Shown: positions 7,787 through 20,187 of the stretch, in pieces
How positions within the stretch are numbered: position 1 is the stretch's first letter
Layout of the letters: each line of letters opens with the position of its first letter
Assembly: GCA_029258795.1 (NCBI GenBank)
Contig: JAPDKB010000004.1
Coordinates: 32,001 to 96,000, forward strand
DNA from: an archaeon
GTDB lineage: Archaea; EX4484-52; WAPT01
Length of the DNA stretch: 64,000 nucleotides
Direction of reading: 5' to 3'
Program-made: the position numbers and the translations under genes
Notes under the pieces: generated by a model
Told to the model about the DNA's origin: nothing
The model's input: only the letters and a program-made list of their open reading frames with translations
The model's database searches: none

Positions 7787-7834
7787 GAGCGATCACCACA
7801 AAACCTTTTATAATTCACCTAGTGTTAAATTTTT

Positions 7835-8458
7835 ATGGGTTTGCTCTCCTTCCTTTTTGGAAATAAAAAAGTGGAGAAAGACGTAGAAGAACTTAAAAAT
7901 TCTATGGAATCTTTTAAAGATGACATCAAAAATTTTGCTTTCTCGCTCGCAAAGATGAACGAAAAGATAGTTGAGTTAAATGAAAAGTTTGATGATGAGA
8001 TTGAACAGATTTACGAGAGAATTTCTGAAATTGAAGAAAAAATTAGCATATTGGCTAAATCCACTCGTGTTGGTGTGGAGGCAAAGAAAGAGCTGAAGGA
8101 AGTGAGGGAACAGCTGAGCAAGCTGATTCAAAAGAAAAAGGAAATTAAGAGGGAAAAGCCCGTTCAAGAGATTAATACGGAGGAAACAAGTAAAGTGCAG
8201 GAAATACATGCCTCTGTGAAAGAGGAAATGAGAATGCTGTCTCCTGCTGAAAGAGAAATCCTTTCCGCCTTGCTTTCTTCCGAAATTCCTCTGAGCTACG
8301 AAGAAATAGCCCAGCTTACGGGTAAATCCACAAGTACTGTTAGAGACCATATGAACAACATAAGGAAAAAAACAAATTTGCTGGAAGTGGTAGAAACTCC
8401 GGACAGAAAGAAGCTGTTTAGGATAGCGGTCAAAGCGAAGCAGGAGATCATATTGTAG
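7835..8458 (+). CDS. Coiled-coil plus C-terminal winged-HTH protein with predicted amphipathic N-terminus (MGLLSFLFG)
   Basis: Heptad-rich aa ~15-105; LSPAEREIL...LSYEEIAQLTGKSTSTVRDHMNNIRKK HTH followed by a beta wing. Confidence 0.85.
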   Translation: MGLLSFLFGNKKVEKDVEELKNSMESFKDDIKNFAFSLAKMNEKIVELNEKFDDEIEQIYERISEIEEKISILAKSTRVGVEAKKELKEVREQLSKLIQKKKEIKREKPVQEINTEETSKVQEIHASVKEEMRMLSPAEREILSALLSSEIPLSYEEIAQLTGKSTSTVRDHMNNIRKKTNLLEVVETPDRKKLFRIAVKAKQEIIL

Positions 8459-8461
8459 TTC

Positions 8462-8651
8462 TATCGAAATTTTCGACACATCTTCGACAGACATTCGACA
8501 CATCTTCGACACTGTCGAAATTTTCGACACATAAAAAAGCACAAGCAAAAGATGCTTTGCACATCTGTGTCGAATAACTGTCGAAATTTTCGACACATCT
8601 TCGACAGACATTCGACACATCTTCGACAGACATTCGACACATCTTCGACAC
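8462..8651. repeat. Bipartite iteron-like array of 11-bp units (TTCGACACATC/TTCGACAGACA) with TGTCGAAA-T-TTTCGACA palindromes around a short A-rich spacer
   Basis: 15 TCGA cores at 8464, 8473, 8484, 8495, 8506, 8515, 8524 and 8570, 8581, 8590, 8601, 8612, 8623, 8634, 8645. Confidence 0.95.
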
Positions 8652-8718
8652 TCAAACACAGCCATTTCCTATTAACGTACATATAAGTCCGAATTAGAAA
8701 CAAGGAAGTTCGTTAAAA

Positions 8719-10889: not shown

Positions 10890-13800
10890 ATGAGGTTAAG
10901 AATGATCTTGCTTTTCACAGTAAGTATCCTCATGCTTTTTATTTGGTCACAGGCATCTCTGGCTATCAACCCAACCCTAATTAAATCACTATCGTCCAAT
11001 CCCAAAGTACATGGTTTGGAGAATCTGGATGTGCTGATGAAAGCCATCTCCAATAATCACAGAAAAGCTAACGGAATTCCCCTCATTCTTAAATTGAATG
11101 GCAACGTGGATGAAAACCTCCTGAAAAGAAAGGGAATAATCGTGAAGAGACGCATACCAAAATTGAATGTTCTGATTGTTGAGGCACCACCAGAAGCATT
11201 GGAATACCTCACATCACTACCTGAAATAAACGCGGTCCGCATACCACGACAGATACCTCTCACCTTACACGAGAGCGTGCCTTTAATTCGGGCCGACAAA
11301 TTATGGAACGTCCAACTAAACGGAATGAATCTAACGGGAAAAGGAATTACCGTCTGTGTTATTGATAGCGGTATTGATTACACACATCCTGCTCTCAGCA
11401 ATTGCACCACAGCATATCAGCCGGAAAATGATAGCGTAACCGTTGTGCCATATACCCTTAACATAACCCCAACAGCCACGCCCTTAATTCAAAATCACAC
11501 AATCGAAATAGAGAATTTCTCCGCATACTCCATTCACATAAAGGAGCTGCATCTTGGTTGGGATGACTATCTCTACATCTATGATGAGAACGGCACAGTT
11601 GTTCGGGAATATAACTGGGAAGACGATGTGGATGTTTGGACTCCACCAATAACAGGCAGGAACGTGACGGTGGGGGTGGTGATAAACGATAGCGATTCCA
11701 GCGTTTACATAGATATGGTGGCCAACGGCACAATGATCCCCAACATAAGCGTATGTCCAAGAATCGTTGCGGGTTACGATTTCGTTAATGACGACCCATT
11801 ACCCTATGATGATGTCGATCACGGAACCATGGTGGCAGGAATAATAGGGGCTAACGGCACGATAAAAGGTGTTGCTCCTGACGTCAATTTTGTGATAATA
11901 AAGGCTTGTTATCCTTTTCTATGGCTGGGGGTGTGCGATGAAGCAGCCATCATAAATGGAATATATTATTGTGTTGAAAACGCAACAAAGTATAACATCT
12001 CGGTCATTTCCATGAGTTTGGGGGGAGGATCTTTCTCAACTTATTGTGATGATTACAGCGAGGAGATGACTCAAGCCATAAGAGATGCGTTAAAAAACAA
12101 CATAACTGTGGTTGTTGCTGCAGGAAATGATGGGTATGCTACCAACATTTCTCATCCTGCATGCATCAACGGCACAATTCCTGTAGGGGCAACAACGAAA
12201 ACTGACGAGATAGCTTATTTTTCCTCCAGATCTCCAAACTTCGAATACTTTGTTTTTGCCCCAGGACAGGACATTTTAACCACAACCCCTACCTATCACA
12301 CAACAGGTTATTATGGAAAGGGAGACGGAACTTCCTTTGCAACTCCACACGTGAGTGGTGTCGTTGCTCTAATGTATCAGTTTTACCGTCTGCTTTACTC
12401 AACCTTACCCACCCCACAATTAATTAGGAGAAAGCTCGTTGAGACGGGCGTGCCAATAATGGATAGTGCTACCTCACACGTTTATCCAAGGGTGGACGCA
12501 TACGCAGCGGTCATGTCACTAGACACAATACCACCAACAGTGTCAATCATAGAACCACCAAAAGATATTGTTACAAACAACACCAATCTAACGTTTTTTG
12601 TGAAGCTAACGGATAATTTTGCGCTGAAAAATGCCTCCGCACACTTACTCTTCAACGGAACCCGCACCGAGCTTAAGAACTGGAATTTTGAGGAGAACAT
12701 CAACAGCACGACCATAAATTTTACTGTGGAGTTTACATCTGATGGAACACGCATAATCAACGTGTCAGCGTGTGACTATTCTTCCTGCACATCTTCATTA
12801 CGCACAGTGGTGGTGGACACAACACCTCCAGCAATACATCTCAACATGTCTAATGGCACTACCATCAACACCTCGACTGTGGTTGTCAGCGTTAAATGCA
12901 CGGATTTAACCCCCATAACCAGTATGGAATACTGTCTGGATGAATACTGCACACCGTTAACCTGTACCAACGGAAACGCGCAATTCGTCCTTAACAATCT
13001 AACAGACGGGAATCACCAGCTTGTCATGCGCGCGGAAGACTTTATAGGGAACAGCAACACGATCAACATAACCTTCAGGGTTAAGGTACCTCCCTACATT
13101 CTTGTTTACATTAATGAGAGCGAAAGCATCATACCAACCAATAACGTTTCAGTGTTCATTGAGGGTTCAGACAACACAGAAATCAAAGATATGGTTTTGG
13201 TTGTGGATAACAGCACGTATGAACACATTTTAATTAACGCAAGCAGCGTGAATTTAAATTACACTTTTTCATTGCCGGATGGAGGGCACAACATAACCGT
13301 GTGTGTTAATGACAGCGTGAATTTGTCTAGCTGTTCATTTTTAGAGGTGAAGGTGGATGGCAATCCCCCAGTTATCTTGCTCGTGTCTCCTCAGAACACC
13401 ACTTACACCAACTCAACCGCCATCCCACTACAATTCCAAGTTAGCGACCGACCATTTAACATCATAAACTGCAATTCAACCATCGAAAGATTCAATGGAA
13501 GTGGTTGGGTCGTGCAACACAAATTTTCCTTGAGCTCAAATGAAACGCCAATAAATTATAGCGATACCTTAACGATGGGTGATGGCATCTTTAACCTCAC
13601 AATAAGTTGTGTGGATCCCGCAACACACATTACCTCCATCAAAGCCAACTTCACCATCGACACCCTTCCTCCATCGATCAGCATCTCCTGGAAGAAAGGA
13701 AATTTGGTGGAGCACACACTGTACTTGAATGAGAGTGAACTTGAGTTTAACTTGAGCGTTAACGATCATGGTACTGGCATTAAAGAAGTAGAGATTGTTA

Positions 13801-15038
13801 AACTTGCTGGAAATTCAACGGAAGCAATAATCAACGACACATATCACAATTTAACCACGGAGAAGCGTTACAATTTATCTTTGATGGTGGAGCAGGAAAA
13901 CACAAGTTTAACGGTGGTTGTGAAGGATAGCATCAGATCCGTGAACGAGAGCTTTTACATCGTAACGGATACTTTGCCCCCACAAATCGTTATGCTTAGT
14001 GTGCCCTCAAAAGTTGCTTTAAATTCGGATATAGAAAGGCTGGCAACATGTGAGGCAGAAGATAACGAAACAGGTATATTTTTGGTTGAGATTTATGGAG
14101 ATACAACCACTACAGGCAACAAAACATTGGTGTGCTGTGCTTACGATTACGCCCTAAACCGCGTGTGTAACGAAACCTATTATTACGTTTATGCACCTAA
14201 ACCCAAAAAATCCAGTTCAACCACCCTCACCACGAGCTCCACTACCACAACCATTCAGATTGTTGAAGAGGAAGAGGAAAAGGAGGAGGTTCTGATTTTG
14301 GAAGATGCAGTTGTCATTGACATTTCAACAAAAGGAAGTGAAAAGGAAATCGATCTTTCGAATCAATCAATCCTGCCGTTCATCAAAAAATTAAGAGTGA
14401 AATCAGAAAAAGGAGTTGAACTCGAGATAGCTCCTGTGCAAGTTCAAAACGAAAGTGTGATTGAGGCTTTTGTTATCAACGCTTCCGGTTCTTCCGAGAT
14501 AACAAGTATCAATCTAACACTCTCTCTTCAAGAACTTCTTGAAGAGGGGGGAGATGTTATAATAGTTGTGAATGAGAAGGAAAATCACAAGGAATTGAAT
14601 GTTGATGCTGACACGCATTCAACAGTAGGTCTGGAAGTTGTTCCTCCAGCCACCATCACCATCCTCAAGAAAAAAACCACACAACTCACATATTATGGAG
14701 AGGAAGTGCAACCCGTGGAAGAGCAGTCCGAGATAAAAACAACCCAAACCAGACCCGATGATGAGGAACAACAACCCTCCAATTCCATTCTCTGGCTGTT
14801 AATGTTGGTTTGTTTTGTTTCCACACTTGTTCTTATAAAATTGTGGTCGCGCCATCTGAAAGAAAAACAGAAAAAACAGATTATTCGTGATATGGAAAGG
14901 ATCAACCTCCTTCGTGCAAAGATGGAGGAATTGCTGAGCTCGAAAGATATAGCTGAGGAGGATCGTAAAAGACTGGAGAGTTTAAGGAATGAAACAGAGA
15001 AGTTGTACAAATTCATGAAAAAGTCATTAGATAAATGA
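10890..15038 (+). CDS. Large membrane-anchored S8 (subtilisin-like) serine protease with Ig-like repeats
   Basis: Signal peptide; catalytic triad VIDSG / HGTMVAG / GTSFATPHV; repeated DTxPP Ig-like boundaries; many N-x-S/T sequons; Thr-rich linker; C-terminal TM helix. Confidence 0.92.
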   Translation: MRLRMILLFTVSILMLFIWSQASLAINPTLIKSLSSNPKVHGLENLDVLMKAISNNHRKANGIPLILKLNGNVDENLLKRKGIIVKRRIPKLNVLIVEAPPEALEYLTSLPEINAVRIPRQIPLTLHESVPLIRADKLWNVQLNGMNLTGKGITVCVIDSGIDYTHPALSNCTTAYQPENDSVTVVPYTLNITPTATPLIQNHTIEIENFSAYSIHIKELHLGWDDYLYIYDENGTVVREYNWEDDVDVWTPPITGRNVTVGVVINDSDSSVYIDMVANGTMIPNISVCPRIVAGYDFVNDDPLPYDDVDHGTMVAGIIGANGTIKGVAPDVNFVIIKACYPFLWLGVCDEAAIINGIYYCVENATKYNISVISMSLGGGSFSTYCDDYSEEMTQAIRDALKNNITVVVAAGNDGYATNISHPACINGTIPVGATTKTDEIAYFSSRSPNFEYFVFAPGQDILTTTPTYHTTGYYGKGDGTSFATPHVSGVVALMYQFYRLLYSTLPTPQLIRRKLVETGVPIMDSATSHVYPRVDAYAAVMSLDTIPPTVSIIEPPKDIVTNNTNLTFFVKLTDNFALKNASAHLLFNGTRTELKNWNFEENINSTTINFTVEFTSDGTRIINVSACDYSSCTSSLRTVVVDTTPPAIHLNMSNGTTINTSTVVVSVKCTDLTPITSMEYCLDEYCTPLTCTNGNAQFVLNNLTDGNHQLVMRAEDFIGNSNTINITFRVKVPPYILVYINESESIIPTNNVSVFIEGSDNTEIKDMVLVVDNSTYEHILINASSVNLNYTFSLPDGGHNITVCVNDSVNLSSCSFLEVKVDGNPPVILLVSPQNTTYTNSTAIPLQFQVSDRPFNIINCNSTIERFNGSGWVVQHKFSLSSNETPINYSDTLTMGDGIFNLTISCVDPATHITSIKANFTIDTLPPSISISWKKGNLVEHTLYLNESELEFNLSVNDHGTGIKEVEIVKLAGNSTEAIINDTYHNLTTEKRYNLSLMVEQENTSLTVVVKDSIRSVNESFYIVTDTLPPQIVMLSVPSKVALNSDIERLATCEAEDNETGIFLVEIYGDTTTTGNKTLVCCAYDYALNRVCNETYYYVYAPKPKKSSSTTLTTSSTTTTIQIVEEEEEKEEVLILEDAVVIDISTKGSEKEIDLSNQSILPFIKKLRVKSEKGVELEIAPVQVQNESVIEAFVINASGSSEITSINLTLSLQELLEEGGDVIIVVNEKENHKELNVDADTHSTVGLEVVPPATITILKKKTTQLTYYGEEVQPVEEQSEIKTTQTRPDDEEQQPSNSILWLLMLVCFVSTLVLIKLWSRHLKEKQKKQIIRDMERINLLRAKMEELLSSKDIAEEDRKRLESLRNETEKLYKFMKKSLDK

Positions 15039-16421: not shown

Positions 16422-18290
16422 ATGCTCAGAACAGAAAGAATGTACAAGCTGACGGTTATAGGAGCGAAAAAGTATTTGGAAGAGGTAGTGGATGCTCTAT
16501 ATGATCTTGGAGCGGTGCATATAAAAGAATATGAAAAAAGTGATGAGTTCTTCGACATAGGAAAGCCGTTTGAGAAATCGGAAAGAATCTCCAAACTTTT
16601 AATGAAGGTAAGAGCAATACTATCCTTACTCCCCAAAGATGTTGAGGTGGATGGAAAGCGGGCTGGCAGCTTCAAAAAATTTGATGAGCTGGAAGCTTGG
16701 TGTATCGAAATCCATGAAAAATTGGAAAAACTGCATGATGCTCTGAGAAAATATACCGAGACACAAGAAAAACTAAAAACAAAAGCGGAGCATCTCAAAA
16801 TGCTTGAGAAGCTCAACCTCAAACCAGAACTGCTGACAGAATATTCCACAATTCAGTGGAAAATCATTTTGACAAAGAATGATGATTTGGTTAAGAAGTT
16901 GGAATCGAAAGCCAAGGATGTGTGTGAATTTCGCGTTGCTGAGTATGATGGAGGGAAATTGATTGCTGTGTTTTATAGAAAGGATGCGGAGAAAAAAGTG
17001 AATGAGATCATGAGTAATTATGAACATGCAGTCGTTGAACTTAAAGAGCTGGAAGGGATGGAAGGCTCACCCACCATCCTGAAAAAAGAGGTCGAAAAAG
17101 AGCTCGTAAAGGTGGAGAAGGAGATTGAAAAGCTTCAGGAAAAAATAAAAGAGATTGCAAAAAGGGTAAAGCCAATTCTCCTCTACTGGCAGGAGGTTCT
17201 GGAGGAGGAAGCTGAGAAAGCTGAAGCCCCGCTAAAATTTGCCACAAGCCCCAACGTCTTCATGCTCAAGGGATGGGTTCCGAAGAAAAATGCGGAAAAG
17301 GTCAAGAAAACGCTGGAAAAAATAACCAACAAAACCATCTATCTGAAGTTTGAAGAGGTGGATGAGAAGAAAGAAAATGCTCCTGTCAAATTCGCTCATC
17401 CCAAAGGTGTGGATAATTTCCAGTACTTCATGGAAATGTATTCCCTGCCAAGATACAGCGAGATAGACCCAACACTCTTTGTTGCGCTCACATTCCCCGT
17501 CTATTTTGGCTTCATTCTGGGTGATGTTGGATACGGACTTACGAGCTTGATAGCGTTCCTCCTTCTCCGTCAAAAGTTCCCGAATCTGAAAAAGCTCATG
17601 AACATATTCATTTTCAGCGCGATAATGACCATAGTGTTTGGATTTGTTTATGGGGAGTTCTTCGGGCTTAATGAGATAGCTGGAATCAAGATGCCTGTGC
17701 TGATTCACAGGGTTCATGAAACAATGGACCTACTTTTAATCTCGGTTGCCATCGGAATAATACACGTTAACTTAGGATTTATTCTGGGCATAATAAACGA
17801 GTGGAAGCTCCACGGATTCAAGAAAGCATTATTTGAAAAAGCGAGCTGGCTGATAATTGAGGGAGGTGTGGTGATGTATTATTTAGCATCAAAGAGCTAC
17901 ATAGCCATTCCAAAAGAAACGGGTATAGCAGTTACGCTTGCAGGCGTTGTCATGCTCGCGAAAGGAGAAGGTATAAAGGGTGTGGTTGAACTCCCCACAC
18001 TGTTGAGTCACACTTTATCATATGCGCGATTGATGGGTGCCGGAATAGCTTCAGCAGGGCTAGCGATGGTGATAGATTCCATAGCTGGGCAGCTGATGGC
18101 AAAAGGTTCCGTGTTCGTTCTTTTTGCTATATTGCTCGTGATAATGGGTCATGTTATGAACATCATGCTTGGCATAATGGAAGGATTTCTCCACTCCCTC
18201 AGGCTTAATTATGTTGAATTTTTCACAAAGTTTTTCATAGGTGGAGGTTTTCCTTACAATCCTTTCGGCAAAAAATCAAAAATGAGGTGA
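16422..18290 (+). CDS. atpI: A/V-type ATP synthase subunit I (a)
   Basis: GWVP, PRYSEIDPT, GDVGYG, SYARL, LHSLRLNYVEFF. Confidence 0.96.
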   Translation: MLRTERMYKLTVIGAKKYLEEVVDALYDLGAVHIKEYEKSDEFFDIGKPFEKSERISKLLMKVRAILSLLPKDVEVDGKRAGSFKKFDELEAWCIEIHEKLEKLHDALRKYTETQEKLKTKAEHLKMLEKLNLKPELLTEYSTIQWKIILTKNDDLVKKLESKAKDVCEFRVAEYDGGKLIAVFYRKDAEKKVNEIMSNYEHAVVELKELEGMEGSPTILKKEVEKELVKVEKEIEKLQEKIKEIAKRVKPILLYWQEVLEEEAEKAEAPLKFATSPNVFMLKGWVPKKNAEKVKKTLEKITNKTIYLKFEEVDEKKENAPVKFAHPKGVDNFQYFMEMYSLPRYSEIDPTLFVALTFPVYFGFILGDVGYGLTSLIAFLLLRQKFPNLKKLMNIFIFSAIMTIVFGFVYGEFFGLNEIAGIKMPVLIHRVHETMDLLLISVAIGIIHVNLGFILGIINEWKLHGFKKALFEKASWLIIEGGVVMYYLASKSYIAIPKETGIAVTLAGVVMLAKGEGIKGVVELPTLLSHTLSYARLMGAGIASAGLAMVIDSIAGQLMAKGSVFVLFAILLVIMGHVMNIMLGIMEGFLHSLRLNYVEFFTKFFIGGGFPYNPFGKKSKMR

Positions 18291-18296
18291 GGAAAA

Positions 18297-18521
18297 ATGG
18301 CAGGAGATGTTGGCCTGATAGCAATCGGAGCCGGACTGGCTATTGGTTTGGGAGCGATCGGAGCCGGACTCGCTGAAGCATCCATAGGAGCTGCAGCAGT
18401 TGGTGCATTCACAGAAAAAGAGGAGCTCTTTGGAAAGGGTTTGATCATGACAGTGATTCCAGAAACCCTCGTGATATTCGGTATGGTTATAGCCATAATG
18501 CTGATGCAGCTCGCACACTAA
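18297..18521 (+). CDS. atpK: A/V-type ATP synthase proteolipid subunit K (c), single hairpin
   Basis: Gly-rich two-TM protein with IPET ion-binding Glu. Confidence 0.95.
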   Translation: MAGDVGLIAIGAGLAIGLGAIGAGLAEASIGAAAVGAFTEKEELFGKGLIMTVIPETLVIFGMVIAIMLMQLAH

Positions 18522-18544
18522 AATCTTATACAAAGAGGTGAAGA

Positions 18545-19105
18545 ATGGCATTGGATGAAGTGGTAGAGGAAGTTATCAGTAGCGCCAAGAACGAAGCCAA
18601 AAGAATAACGGAGGAAGGAAAAAAAGAAGCTAAAAAAATACTGAGTAAAGCGGAGAAGGAAGCAAAGGAGTATGAAGAGCGTTTCAGGAAGGAGACAGAG
18701 AAGATGCTGGAAGCGCTGGAGAAAAAAACAATGGCATCAGCAGAACTGGAGGCCACAAAAATTATCATGGAAGCAAGAAAAACGATCATGGAGGATTTCG
18801 TCAAAAGCTTGTTGGAAACCCTATCCAAACTCGACAAGAAAAAGAAGGAAAAATTGTTAGGGTCTTTGGCGGAGATGGTCAGGAATGAAATGAAGGTTCA
18901 CACCATTTATTGCAATAAGAACGAGGAAAACATCATCAAACAACTCTTTAAAAACGTCAAAATCAAGCACATCGATTGTGCAGGAGGGTTCATCGCAGAG
19001 AACAAGGAAGGAGATTTATCCATGGATTTGACATACGAAACTCTCGTAAATAGAATAAAGCTCGATCTCCTCAAGATCCTCGATTCCGGGCTCAAGAGCA
19101 AGTAA
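18545..19105 (+). CDS. atpE: A/V-type ATP synthase subunit E
   Basis: N-terminal coiled coil, GGFI..N..G..SMDLTYE; operon position. Confidence 0.9.
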   Translation: MALDEVVEEVISSAKNEAKRITEEGKKEAKKILSKAEKEAKEYEERFRKETEKMLEALEKKTMASAELEATKIIMEARKTIMEDFVKSLLETLSKLDKKKKEKLLGSLAEMVRNEMKVHTIYCNKNEENIIKQLFKNVKIKHIDCAGGFIAENKEGDLSMDLTYETLVNRIKLDLLKILDSGLKSK

Positions 19106-19107
19106 GC

Positions 19108-20187
19108 GTGAACACCATGCCCGCAATGGACATACTTGGAAAGATAAGCTTTGGAAAGTATCCATATCTAGCGGCACGGATGCGTGCCATGAAGAGTAAG
19201 TTGATGACTAGAATGGACTACGAAAAAATGCTTAAGATGGACATATACACCATGACCAAGTATCTGTATGAACACAGCTTCCCGATTCAGGAAGAATTGA
19301 TGAAAGAAGGTATAAAACCAGAGGATGTCATAGAGATGGCAGTAAATAAAAGCTTAGAGGAGTGCTTCAGAAAACTCCTGTTCATAACCGCAGGTAACAC
19401 CAGAAAAATCATCGTCGCATACGCTTACAGATACGACATAGAAAACTTGAAGGTTCTGGTTCGAGCAAGGATAAGTAACGAGCCCCTCGATCTCGTGGAA
19501 AAGCTGTGGGTGTGCGCCGGAACTCTGACCAAGGAAAAACTCCGAGAGCTTTATCAGCTTGAGAGTTTGGAAGATGTGATGAAAAAAGCAAGGATATTCA
19601 AGGTGGATAAGAAAATGAAGCAAGCCACAGAAGTTGCCGAAAAAGAAGGTAACCCAGCGGTAATAGAAAACCTTTTTGACAAGCGTTACTATACTTTCTT
19701 GGTTAAGTACACCAAAAGATTTGGTAGGGAAGCAGAACCGATCTCAAAACTGATAAAACTTCGTTTTGATATCATGAACCTGCGCACGCTTTACAGGCTT
19801 AAGAGGGAAGGTGTTTCCAAAGAAGAAATTCTCAAGTGGATCCACCTCACCGGAGGTTATCGACTCAAGAAAAAGGAGTTGGAACAATTGGCATCCGCAT
19901 CAAACCTCAGAGAACTTCACGAGAAGGTTAAAAACACTTACTATGGAAGCATTATCGGAAGTGTGGATATTTCAACCACACTCATAGACCTCGAGCTCAA
20001 GCTGAGTCAGTACTTTTTGGGCTTCGCATCCACCCTCATGCATGCTCATCCTTTATCCATAGTGCCGGTAATAGCATTCATGATGATGAAGGAGGTGGAA
20101 GCTAACAATATAAAGCTTATAGCAAGAGGTAAGGCAAAGGGTGTGGATGAAAACTTCATTAGAAACAATCTGGTGGTGTATGCATGA
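19108..20187 (+). CDS. atpC: A/V-type ATP synthase subunit C
   Basis: YLAARMRAMKSKL, YDIENLK, KEVEANNIKLIARGK. Confidence 0.92.
   Translation: MNTMPAMDILGKISFGKYPYLAARMRAMKSKLMTRMDYEKMLKMDIYTMTKYLYEHSFPIQEELMKEGIKPEDVIEMAVNKSLEECFRKLLFITAGNTRKIIVAYAYRYDIENLKVLVRARISNEPLDLVEKLWVCAGTLTKEKLRELYQLESLEDVMKKARIFKVDKKMKQATEVAEKEGNPAVIENLFDKRYYTFLVKYTKRFGREAEPISKLIKLRFDIMNLRTLYRLKREGVSKEEILKWIHLTGGYRLKKKELEQLASASNLRELHEKVKNTYYGSIIGSVDISTTLIDLELKLSQYFLGFASTLMHAHPLSIVPVIAFMMMKEVEANNIKLIARGKAKGVDENFIRNNLVVYA

Follow-up and report, generated by a model that had tools for sequence, protein, structure and literature searches.

The window, a 64,000-nucleotide stretch of an archaeal contig (JAPDKB010000004.1, positions 32,001 to 96,000 of the forward strand; assembly GCA_029258795.1, lineage EX4484-52, WAPT01), contains a gene for a 207-amino acid protein and, directly behind it, an array of short DNA repeats. 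This gene-array pair and the possibility that its protein ties the chromosome to the membrane are the subject of the present analysis. The gene is separated by 48 nt from a divergent gene for seryl-tRNA synthetase (SerRS). Past the array lie a convergent gene for a tyrosyl/tryptophanyl-tRNA synthetase (TyrRS) and then RtcA, and a topoisomerase gene is also among the neighbors.

The TATA-like element close to the ATG (Table 1) suggests a leaderless transcript. An element of this kind at equal distance, with an equal layout, was also observed in two congeners. Because of the TATA-like box and the conserved N terminus of the homologues, the start codon, and hence the N-terminal peptide, is considered well placed. 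An antisense open reading frame (ORF) of 229 amino acids (7976-8665) was rejected as spurious, as it consists of translated repeats, overlaps the conserved gene, and is common only to a congener through DNA identity.

An AlphaFold2 model was obtained from a 12-row alignment, with a mean predicted local distance difference test score (pLDDT) of 78.8 and a predicted template modeling score of 0.40. The extreme tip, residues 1-7, was poorly defined (pLDDT <50). It is followed by two long helices, residues 10-74 and 78-107 (together ∼95 amino acids), a disordered linker (residues 108-117), and a C-terminal domain comprising helices 118-133, 137-148, 155-162, and 166-179, strands 183-187 and 193-197, and a final helix, 199-206. 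The order α1-α2-α3-αR-β-hairpin-α5 in the predicted model is that of the ArsR/SmtB fold, with residues ∼166-179 as the recognition helix. The initial annotation, made from the letters alone, had described a coiled coil of ∼90 amino acids and a C-terminal winged helix-turn-helix (wHTH) domain; the model agrees with both, the coiled coil being presumed.

Structural comparison was consistent with this assignment. For the C-terminal domain, a Foldseek search of the PDB returned wHTH repressors only (MepR, E 3e-4; ArsR, SmtB, and MarR), and a wide VIA-align search returned CzrA (Z 10.6, root mean square deviation 3.5, 84 aligned residues) together with ArsR and SmtB. The result lists of both searches were filled by wHTH proteins, and the rod was barely probed by either. 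A profile search of PDB sequences yielded coiled-coil proteins only for the rod, plus weak helix-turn-helix (HTH) rows. In Pfam (best 25 of 35 rows), generic HTH matches at or below threshold were observed, namely Sigma70_r4_2 (PF08281; 25.8 bits against a cut-off of 25.7, residues 129-179) and, below their gathering thresholds, HTH_5 (21.5 against 22) and HTH_20 (21.9 against 27). Nothing in NCBIfam (best 25 of 38 rows) came near its cut-off, and no curated family covering the protein was found in either library. Identity with sigma-70 region 4 was rejected: region 2 is lacking, the model has a wing, and the PF08281 match is read as generic HTH likeness. To our knowledge, archaea have no sigma factors. 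No PspA/ESCRT-III-like family that would account for the peptide and helical hairpin was among the Pfam matches listed, which leaves that idea neither supported nor excluded.

Table 1. Features of the gene-array locus (window coordinates)
Feature	Position	Strand	Basis or remark
TATA-like element, TTTTATAATT	7806-7815	+	∼25 nt 5′ of the ATG; presumed promoter
Gene for the 207-amino acid protein	7835..8458	+	ORF calling; stop codon included
Residues 1-12, MGLLSFLFGNKK, hydrophobic/aromatic with two lysines	7835..7870	+	Presumed membrane-targeting peptide
Residues 10-107, two long helices, presumed coiled-coil/oligomerization rod	7862..8155	+	AlphaFold2 model
Residues 118-207, wHTH domain of ArsR/SmtB-like topology	8186..8455	+	AlphaFold2, Foldseek, VIA-align
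Array block 1: degenerate palindrome, four direct 11-bp repeats, perfect palindrome TGTCGAAATTTTCGACA	8462..8530		
Inter-block spacer, 36 bp	8531..8566		Not conserved; longer in the congener
Array block 2: two inverted cores, palindrome, six direct repeats at 11 bp	8567..8651		

The repeat array and its conservation

The array opens with a degenerate half-site 3 nt behind the TAG stop codon (8456-8458), a distance that the initial annotation had given correctly, and the first perfect TTCGACA core begins at 8472. Fourteen perfect cores are present, 11 on the plus strand and three on the minus strand. The plus-strand cores follow one another at 11, 11, 11, 18, 66, 11, 11, 11, 11, and 11 bp. Each block is opened by a 17-bp palindrome whose half-sites lie 10 bp apart from center to center. 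There are three such palindromes in the array: that opening block 1 is degenerate, and the second, a perfect copy, closes the same block. Alternation of the repeat units generates a perfect 22-bp super-unit, TTCGACACATCTTCGACAGACA, which is present in block 2 at 2.8 copies with a 100% match.

The window contains 15 matches to TTCGACAS against an expected 3.1 ± 1.8, and 0 of 100 shuffles reached 15. Across the genome (1,168,407 bp), 103 TTCGACA cores were counted, and every stretch with at least four cores in 300 bp was the array locus. The tandem pattern occurred eight times, always at the array, whereas the reversed control gave no occurrence. The array is unique in the genome and far beyond chance.

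Contigs from public runs of two studies confirmed the central part of the array, one record spanning 8464-8607 without difference. The runs that bear the sequence are labeled hydrothermal vent metagenomes. Independent assemblies all break within the array, where k-mers are 4-15 times as deep as in the flanks. On this evidence the array is real, but the exact number of its copies, and possibly its extent within the population, is uncertain. In one contig of run X1, 8536 is connected to 8684 by 19 other letters and block 2 is missing, which reflects a strain variant or else the path taken by the assembly.

Alignment with a congener (the present genome, G000, against G001) revealed 84% identity in array block 1 and 87% in the first 54 nt of block 2. 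The corresponding values were 66% for the gene, 74-75% for the flanking aminoacyl-tRNA synthetase coding DNA, 52% for the inter-block spacer, and 57% for the remaining intergenic DNA. Judged by these identities, the array is under purifying selection, the best conserved DNA of its neighborhood and more strongly constrained than the gene itself.

Linkage of the gene to private arrays

Homologues were detected in 12 of 41 genomes of the phylum by a single-protein search and in 21 of 42 with a 12-sequence profile, the latter including eight of 10 high-quality genomes and seven of 13 genera. A profile search of genome contigs with a 5-row alignment gave four loci. Two congeners, at 50% protein identity, have equal synteny and equal TTCGACA blocks with other letters in the spacers; one of these contigs ends inside the array. 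The housekeeping order SerRS, gene, array, TyrRS, RtcA is kept in families f1 and f6.

Linkage was scored at 18 loci (that of G000 and 17 others) by ranking each 200-nt window on the 7-mer that recurs in it most often. Because two loci stop at the gene, 16 could be tested, and in 10 of these the top repeat window of the whole 5-13-kb locus lay no more than 500 nt 3′ of the gene. The motif itself differs by lineage: TTCGACA in g1, GATAGTATC and GGTTACC in g6, TTAATCGA in g8, TAACTAWACA in g4, and a TGTTRTAACA-type motif in g12, g3, and g10, that of g12 being TGTTGTAACA-like. The recognition helix also differs between these lineages in the alignment. Exact copies of the local motif were found at the locus of the homologue in G035 (4 of 5), G029 (4 of 5), G037 (1 of 1), G009 (2 of 2), and G014 (3 of 3). 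The exception was G007 (0 of 3), in which the local copies are variants. Kin are not independent, and the effective count is ∼5-7 genus-level lineages, each with a motif of its own.

The initial annotation had proposed that the protein is the cognate binder of the array, a proposal under which homologues would be expected beside arrays peculiar to their lineage. This linkage was observed, and its conservation, together with the constraint on the array above that on the gene, supports the putative binding. Site-specific recognition of the TTCGACA array by the 207-residue protein is, on this comparative evidence, very probable.

In family f3, a TGTTAC/GTAACA-type motif is also present inside the linker of the gene, giving rise to NNVTTD-like peptide repeats (L035:3800-4100, L042:5680-5760, L020:1348-1408). 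A gene for a XerA-like recombinase stands convergent to the gene in the same family, 0.9-1.9 kb downstream across AT-rich non-coding DNA. Paralogues of ∼160 amino acids that consist of the rod only are encoded on other contigs in eight g6 genomes.

Across 1.84 billion representatives, a profile search returned 721 clusters with E ≤1e-3 and, at the stricter limit of E ≤1e-10, 129; most were 180-310 amino acids long. Neighbors in the ESM Atlas were "hypothetical" or "HTH type 11" clusters of Nanobdellota. A distant subfamily, sampled at 80 metagenome loci, carries repeat clusters with a TGTTTA core upstream of the gene: at least four copies of a 7-mer occurred within 400 nt upstream in 24 of 51 loci, compared with 2% of 801 control blocks. 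The linker of these proteins contains VQT peptide repeats encoded by the related CAAACAG, and copies of AAAGTGAGAG lie 3′ of the stop codon. Given that the distant subfamily has its arrays upstream, a private array next to the binder gene is a trait of the family, but the side on which it lies is not.

The conserved neighborhood of the distant subfamily includes a convergent paralogue and genes for a small wHTH protein and an Lhr-like helicase. The convergent paralogue (L099:4909-5589, minus strand; L049:4237-4941, minus strand; most of L043-L122) has a rod and a C-terminal HTH and is without the N-terminal peptide. Its linker is encoded by a (CAGA)n-type microsatellite that yields QTDR repeats, the length of which could change easily.

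CTCTCAC[AT]T motifs located downstream of homologues in g4, g3, and g12 were set outside the system, as they accompany a different neighbor gene and lie on another contig in G000. Copies on one strand occupy long non-coding stretches (G000:C7:37557-38640, L038:6650-8950, L039:7500-8000, L099:4550-4760), and on the other strand the motif reads as AAAGTGAGAG in the distant subfamily. The G000 copies adjoin a gene starting MAKKKVLVLCVDRDDD, and three copies of ATTTCCCATTT are present in the same G000:C7 stretch.

The N-terminal peptide and the genomic position of the locus

The N termini of the family were scored for at least four hydrophobic residues including Phe or Trp in positions 2-9, at least two Lys or Arg in positions 7-16, and no long hydrophobic run. 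This combination was present in 84 of 147 Met-starting family representatives, compared with 67 of 1029 proxy-proteome ORFs of the genome. The median of the best 11-residue helical hydrophobic moment (μH) was 0.51 in the family and 0.41 in the proteome (one-sided Mann-Whitney p 2e-10), and the peptide is positively charged. A high moment and basic residues mark the short terminal membrane-targeting helices of the MinD, FtsA, and Noc type; the moment of the 207-residue protein itself is low. Phe-8 is nearly invariant and among the ten best conserved positions of the 12-row alignment; the rod is without a conserved column. In the 207-residue protein, the hydrophobicity of residues 2-8 falls in the 98th percentile of the proxy proteome, and two lysines follow. 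A signal peptide or membrane span is unlikely because the segment is too short and wrongly ordered, with the hydrophobic part first and the basic part after. A PCNA-interacting box was dropped by judgement, since many family termini are rich in Trp or Phe with a Lys-Lys pair, which does not fit such a box. Membrane anchoring by the N-terminal peptide is plausible.

The genome is 96.3% complete in 23 contigs. It encodes two FtsZ proteins, both away from the locus, and three MinD/ParA-like proteins (CbiA-type ATPases of ∼260 codons) on other contigs; no match to Snf7 was found at this completeness. A single orc1/cdc6 gene is present (G000:C4 ∼18147-19433, minus strand), and just upstream of it a 61-nt AT-rich stretch is bordered by an element of 14-19 nt in three copies of inverted arrangement. 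The element TCCANNNGAAAT, the core of which resembles the archaeal mini-origin recognition box (ORB), occurs 28 times in the genome. Four of these ORB-like elements lie within C4:19483-19791, no more than 310 bp from the orc1 start, and none lies in the array. Located at C4:40461-40651, the array is 21 kb from this orc1/ORB origin, a distance of 1.8% of the genome. Along contig C4, the GC skew tracks the orientation of the genes, turns neither at orc1 nor at the array, and is uninformative. In 14 of 15 other genomes checked, orc1 and the homologue are on different contigs.

Two further TCCANNNGAAAT elements lie at G000:C4:11670 and 11752, both on the minus strand and 8 kb from the orc1 cluster. 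A 195-amino acid protein that starts MVFGFLFGKKEK is encoded 2.2 kb from orc1 (G000:C4:15377-15964, equivalent to L123:878-1465); it is long helical and has no HTH. Its counterparts in congeners match the family profile weakly (G001:C12:14907-15359 and G002:C14:4267-4707, each ∼2.5 kb from orc1). It might partner the HTH protein as a membrane-tipped rod.

A candidate chromosome-membrane tether and its rivals

The predicted architecture recalls several bacterial proteins. In published accounts, RicO binds nine origin-proximal ricS sites through its DNA-binding domain and the membrane through an amphipathic helix. RocS of Streptococcus pneumoniae combines a DNA-binding domain with a coiled coil and an amphipathic helix; one such helix does not suffice for membrane binding, and oligomerization is required. 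In TubY, an HTH and a coiled coil are accompanied by a lysine-rich tail, which forms a membrane-binding amphipathic helix in the oligomer only, and the protein acts at a repeat centromere. The 207-residue protein shares with RicO, RocS, and RacA of the Firmicutes three modules, a small HTH domain, a presumed coiled coil, and a short peptide that here is predicted to bind the membrane. RicO likewise binds a specific motif near the origin, and the oligomerization need of RocS matches the multivalency that an array would give. The order of modules differs: those proteins have an N-terminal MerR/MarR-type HTH, a coiled coil, and (RicO, RocS) a C-terminal amphipathic helix, whereas here the order is peptide, rod, C-terminal wHTH, with a winged domain of ArsR/MarR-like type and an archaeal (DPANN) host. 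One dense array touching its gene also contrasts with the nine sites over ∼700 kb described for RicO. TubY, as described, resembles the present protein in its HTH and coiled coil, and in its lysine-rich membrane tail and repeat centromere, but is MerR-like and plasmid-borne, carries its peptide at the C terminus, and has TubR and TubZ. No TubR/TubZ-type partner was found among the genes adjoining that of the 207-residue protein. No family of the RicO/RocS/RacA type, such as the DUF536 of RocS, was among the best 25 of 35 Pfam and best 25 of 38 NCBIfam rows, which are library scans only. Given the reversed domain order and the absence of any sequence relation in these scans, the likeness to RicO, RocS, and TubY is one of analogy and not of membership.

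Other known systems share part of this arrangement. Noc, the ParB-family nucleoid occlusion protein, has an N-terminal membrane helix, and its membrane binding depends on assembly on DNA at scattered sites. Both would be site-specific DNA binders that carry, at the N terminus, a peptide directing them to the membrane (peptide function and DNA binding being presumed here), but the present locus has a single array in place of scattered sites. No ParBc or ParB CTPase domain matched the protein among the same Pfam and NCBIfam rows; a distant relative, P0055, gave a weak parB_part row in NCBIfam (E 0.026, 14.3 bits against a cut-off of 58). The plasmid centromeres R1 parC (with ParR), P1 parS, and F sopC are composed of phased short repeats beside the binder gene. 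Likewise, two blocks of ∼11-bp direct repeats of lineage-specific sequence adjoin the gene of the putative binder here. Unlike those systems, the locus is chromosomal, in housekeeping synteny, and without an adjacent NTPase, and the presumed binder is a wHTH protein with a rod and a presumed membrane peptide instead of a ribbon-helix-helix or ParB protein.

The reading that we favor, tentatively and as something slightly short of probable, is that of a one-protein chromosome-membrane tether, analogous and not homologous to bacterial RocS, RicO, and TubY. Of its parts, membrane binding by the protein seems evenly balanced, and a role in segregation or positioning is doubtful. The mechanism envisaged is that the ArsR/MarR-like wHTH domain would read the TTCGACA cores, pairing head-to-head on the 17-bp palindromes and arranging itself head-to-tail along the 11-bp direct repeats in the 22-bp super-unit. 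The long helices would oligomerize, so that a dozen or so copies could be loaded on ∼190 bp. Such loading would cluster many weak hydrophobic-plus-lysine peptides into one strong anchor, and the DNA-bound assembly, not the free protein, would stick to the cytoplasmic membrane. The result would be a single membrane-held locus near the orc1/ORB origin, by which an ultra-small archaeon dividing with FtsZ could position or segregate its chromosome with minimal means. Division in DPANN archaea is FtsZ-based according to a review. A full-text literature search, largely of open journals, brought up no account of a protein family of this kind in DPANN or other archaea.

Several observations weigh against the tether. 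With the 12-sequence profile, half of the phylum's genomes (21 of 42) gave no homologue, and the device is thus either not universal or diverged past detection. At six of the 16 testable loci, the top 7-mer window was not downstream of the gene. At one of these (L030, G041:C33:11787-12017, lineage g6), the full-length gene is parted from the cluster of the same motif by a separate 95-codon HTH-only ORF, and at another (L031), the contig stops 240 nt behind the gene, where 3.7 copies of the repeat can still be seen. The remaining four belong to family f3, for which a looser 6-mer measure was chosen after the fact. With that measure, the best windows lay across the stop codon and in the linker of the gene at L039 and L042, inside the gene at L035, and elsewhere at L037, where the stop-codon windows were one count lower. 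Repeat periods of 8, 9, 10, and 11 bp occur in different lineages, and loading on one face of the DNA is therefore not general. The peptide of the 207-residue protein itself has a μH of 0.27, in the 14th percentile of the 1029-ORF proxy proteome, and consists of only ∼6 hydrophobic residues with pLDDT <50. Given its low moment and very high hydrophobicity, it is a greasy patch followed by two lysines and not a textbook amphipathic helix, and the amphipathic N terminus claimed in the initial annotation did not hold for this protein. No adjacent gene for an NTPase motor (ParA, ParM, or TubZ) was found among the neighbors of the locus. In G011, the only other genome with both genes on one contig, orc1 and the homologue are 94 kb apart in a genome of ∼1.1 Mb; proximity to the origin is a hint only, being seen in two genomes and weak in the second. 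Finally, the upstream arrays of the distant subfamily fit plain autoregulation equally well.

A more general form of the tether reading would be a widespread one-protein "centromere" of DPANN archaea, in which a membrane-tipped coiled-coil wHTH protein sits on a private, fast-evolving array beside or inside its own gene and anchors an origin-proximal point of the chromosome, as the minimal segregation or positioning device of very small cells, free of a motor and independent in origin from the Firmicute RocS and RicO; we regard this as rather unlikely. For chromosome segregation in archaea, a conserved pair of binder gene and site array offers a concrete candidate. The DNA site is known beforehand for each lineage, so that electrophoretic mobility shift, chromatin immunoprecipitation, and liposome assays can be designed from the sequence. 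If correct, the proposal would mean that bacteria and archaea converged on one combination of DNA-binding domain, coiled coil, and membrane peptide, and nature would have supplied a collection of protein-site pairs orthogonal to one another.

The main rival, with a modest share of the probability, is an ordinary transcription factor that binds the array to control its own gene or a neighbor, or to form a roadblock or terminator where two genes converge; in that case, the peptide at the N terminus would be for partner binding, a degron, or regulated sequestration. The predicted fold of residues 118-207 is that of ArsR/SmtB and MarR repressors, including α1 and α5, the dimer-interface helices of ArsR, and the palindromic half-sites 10 bp apart are also repressor-like. 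Sites beside their own gene are typical of autoregulators, and the upstream arrays of the distant subfamily occupy an operator position. Centromere-binding proteins, however, also autoregulate through their centromeres, and these upstream arrays thus cannot separate a tether from an autoregulator. Unlike the repressors, the protein has ∼115 extra N-terminal residues (peptide and rod), scores under the family cut-offs, and is without evidence of a metal or ligand site. Moreover, in most lineages (g1, g8, g3, g12, g10, and part of g6) the array lies 3′ of the gene between convergent 3′ ends, a placement at which no promoter is expected. Fourteen phased sites are far above the usual operator number, the array is better conserved than the gene, and the hydrophobic-plus-basic N terminus is conserved family-wide.

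A site for nucleoid organization or loading with no membrane role, at which the coiled coil would link stretches of DNA or bring SMC or a different partner to one locus in a parS-like manner, is improbable. A single dense site cluster near the origin and a long helical rod would suit it, as would a possible partner with a similar N terminus and rod and no HTH, the protein encoded 2.2 kb from orc1. It leaves the conserved hydrophobic-plus-lysine N terminus unexplained, and no partner has been identified.

The initial annotation had offered an initiator as its alternative to a tether. In that case, the array would be the iterons of a second, orc1-independent origin or replication-control element, and the protein its initiator or accessory factor, possibly membrane-attached. 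Direct repeats of about one helical turn beside the binder gene do resemble iteron replicons and Sulfolobus oriC3 with WhiP, and 0.6-2 kb of AT-rich non-coding DNA follows the gene in other lineages. The canonical orc1/ORB origin, however, is 21 kb away, which makes the array an unlikely main origin; the ORB-type elements cluster beside the single orc1/cdc6 and not in the array. The array is also not AT-rich (GC 0.41 against about 0.44), no AAA+ or helicase-loading module was among the Pfam and NCBIfam matches listed, and tblastn against 72,556 plasmid and 50,697 phage records came back empty. The initiator is accordingly disfavored, and a second origin is quite improbable.

That the pair is a chromosomally fixed leftover of a mobile-element partition or transfer module, with a centromere or oriT-like site and an accessory protein, is very improbable: a binder gene followed by repeats recalls plasmid par loci, and the XerA-like gene of family f3 is convergent downstream, but housekeeping synteny is kept across families f1 and f6, the plasmid and phage records gave no match, there is one copy per genome, and the genes next to it in G000 include no integrase, relaxase, or NTPase. 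The one XerA-type recombinase of G000 is encoded on contig C7. Three genes downstream of the array, at 10890-15038 on the plus strand of the window, lies the gene for a 1382-amino acid secreted subtilisin-like protein with many N-x-S/T sequons and a C-terminal membrane span.

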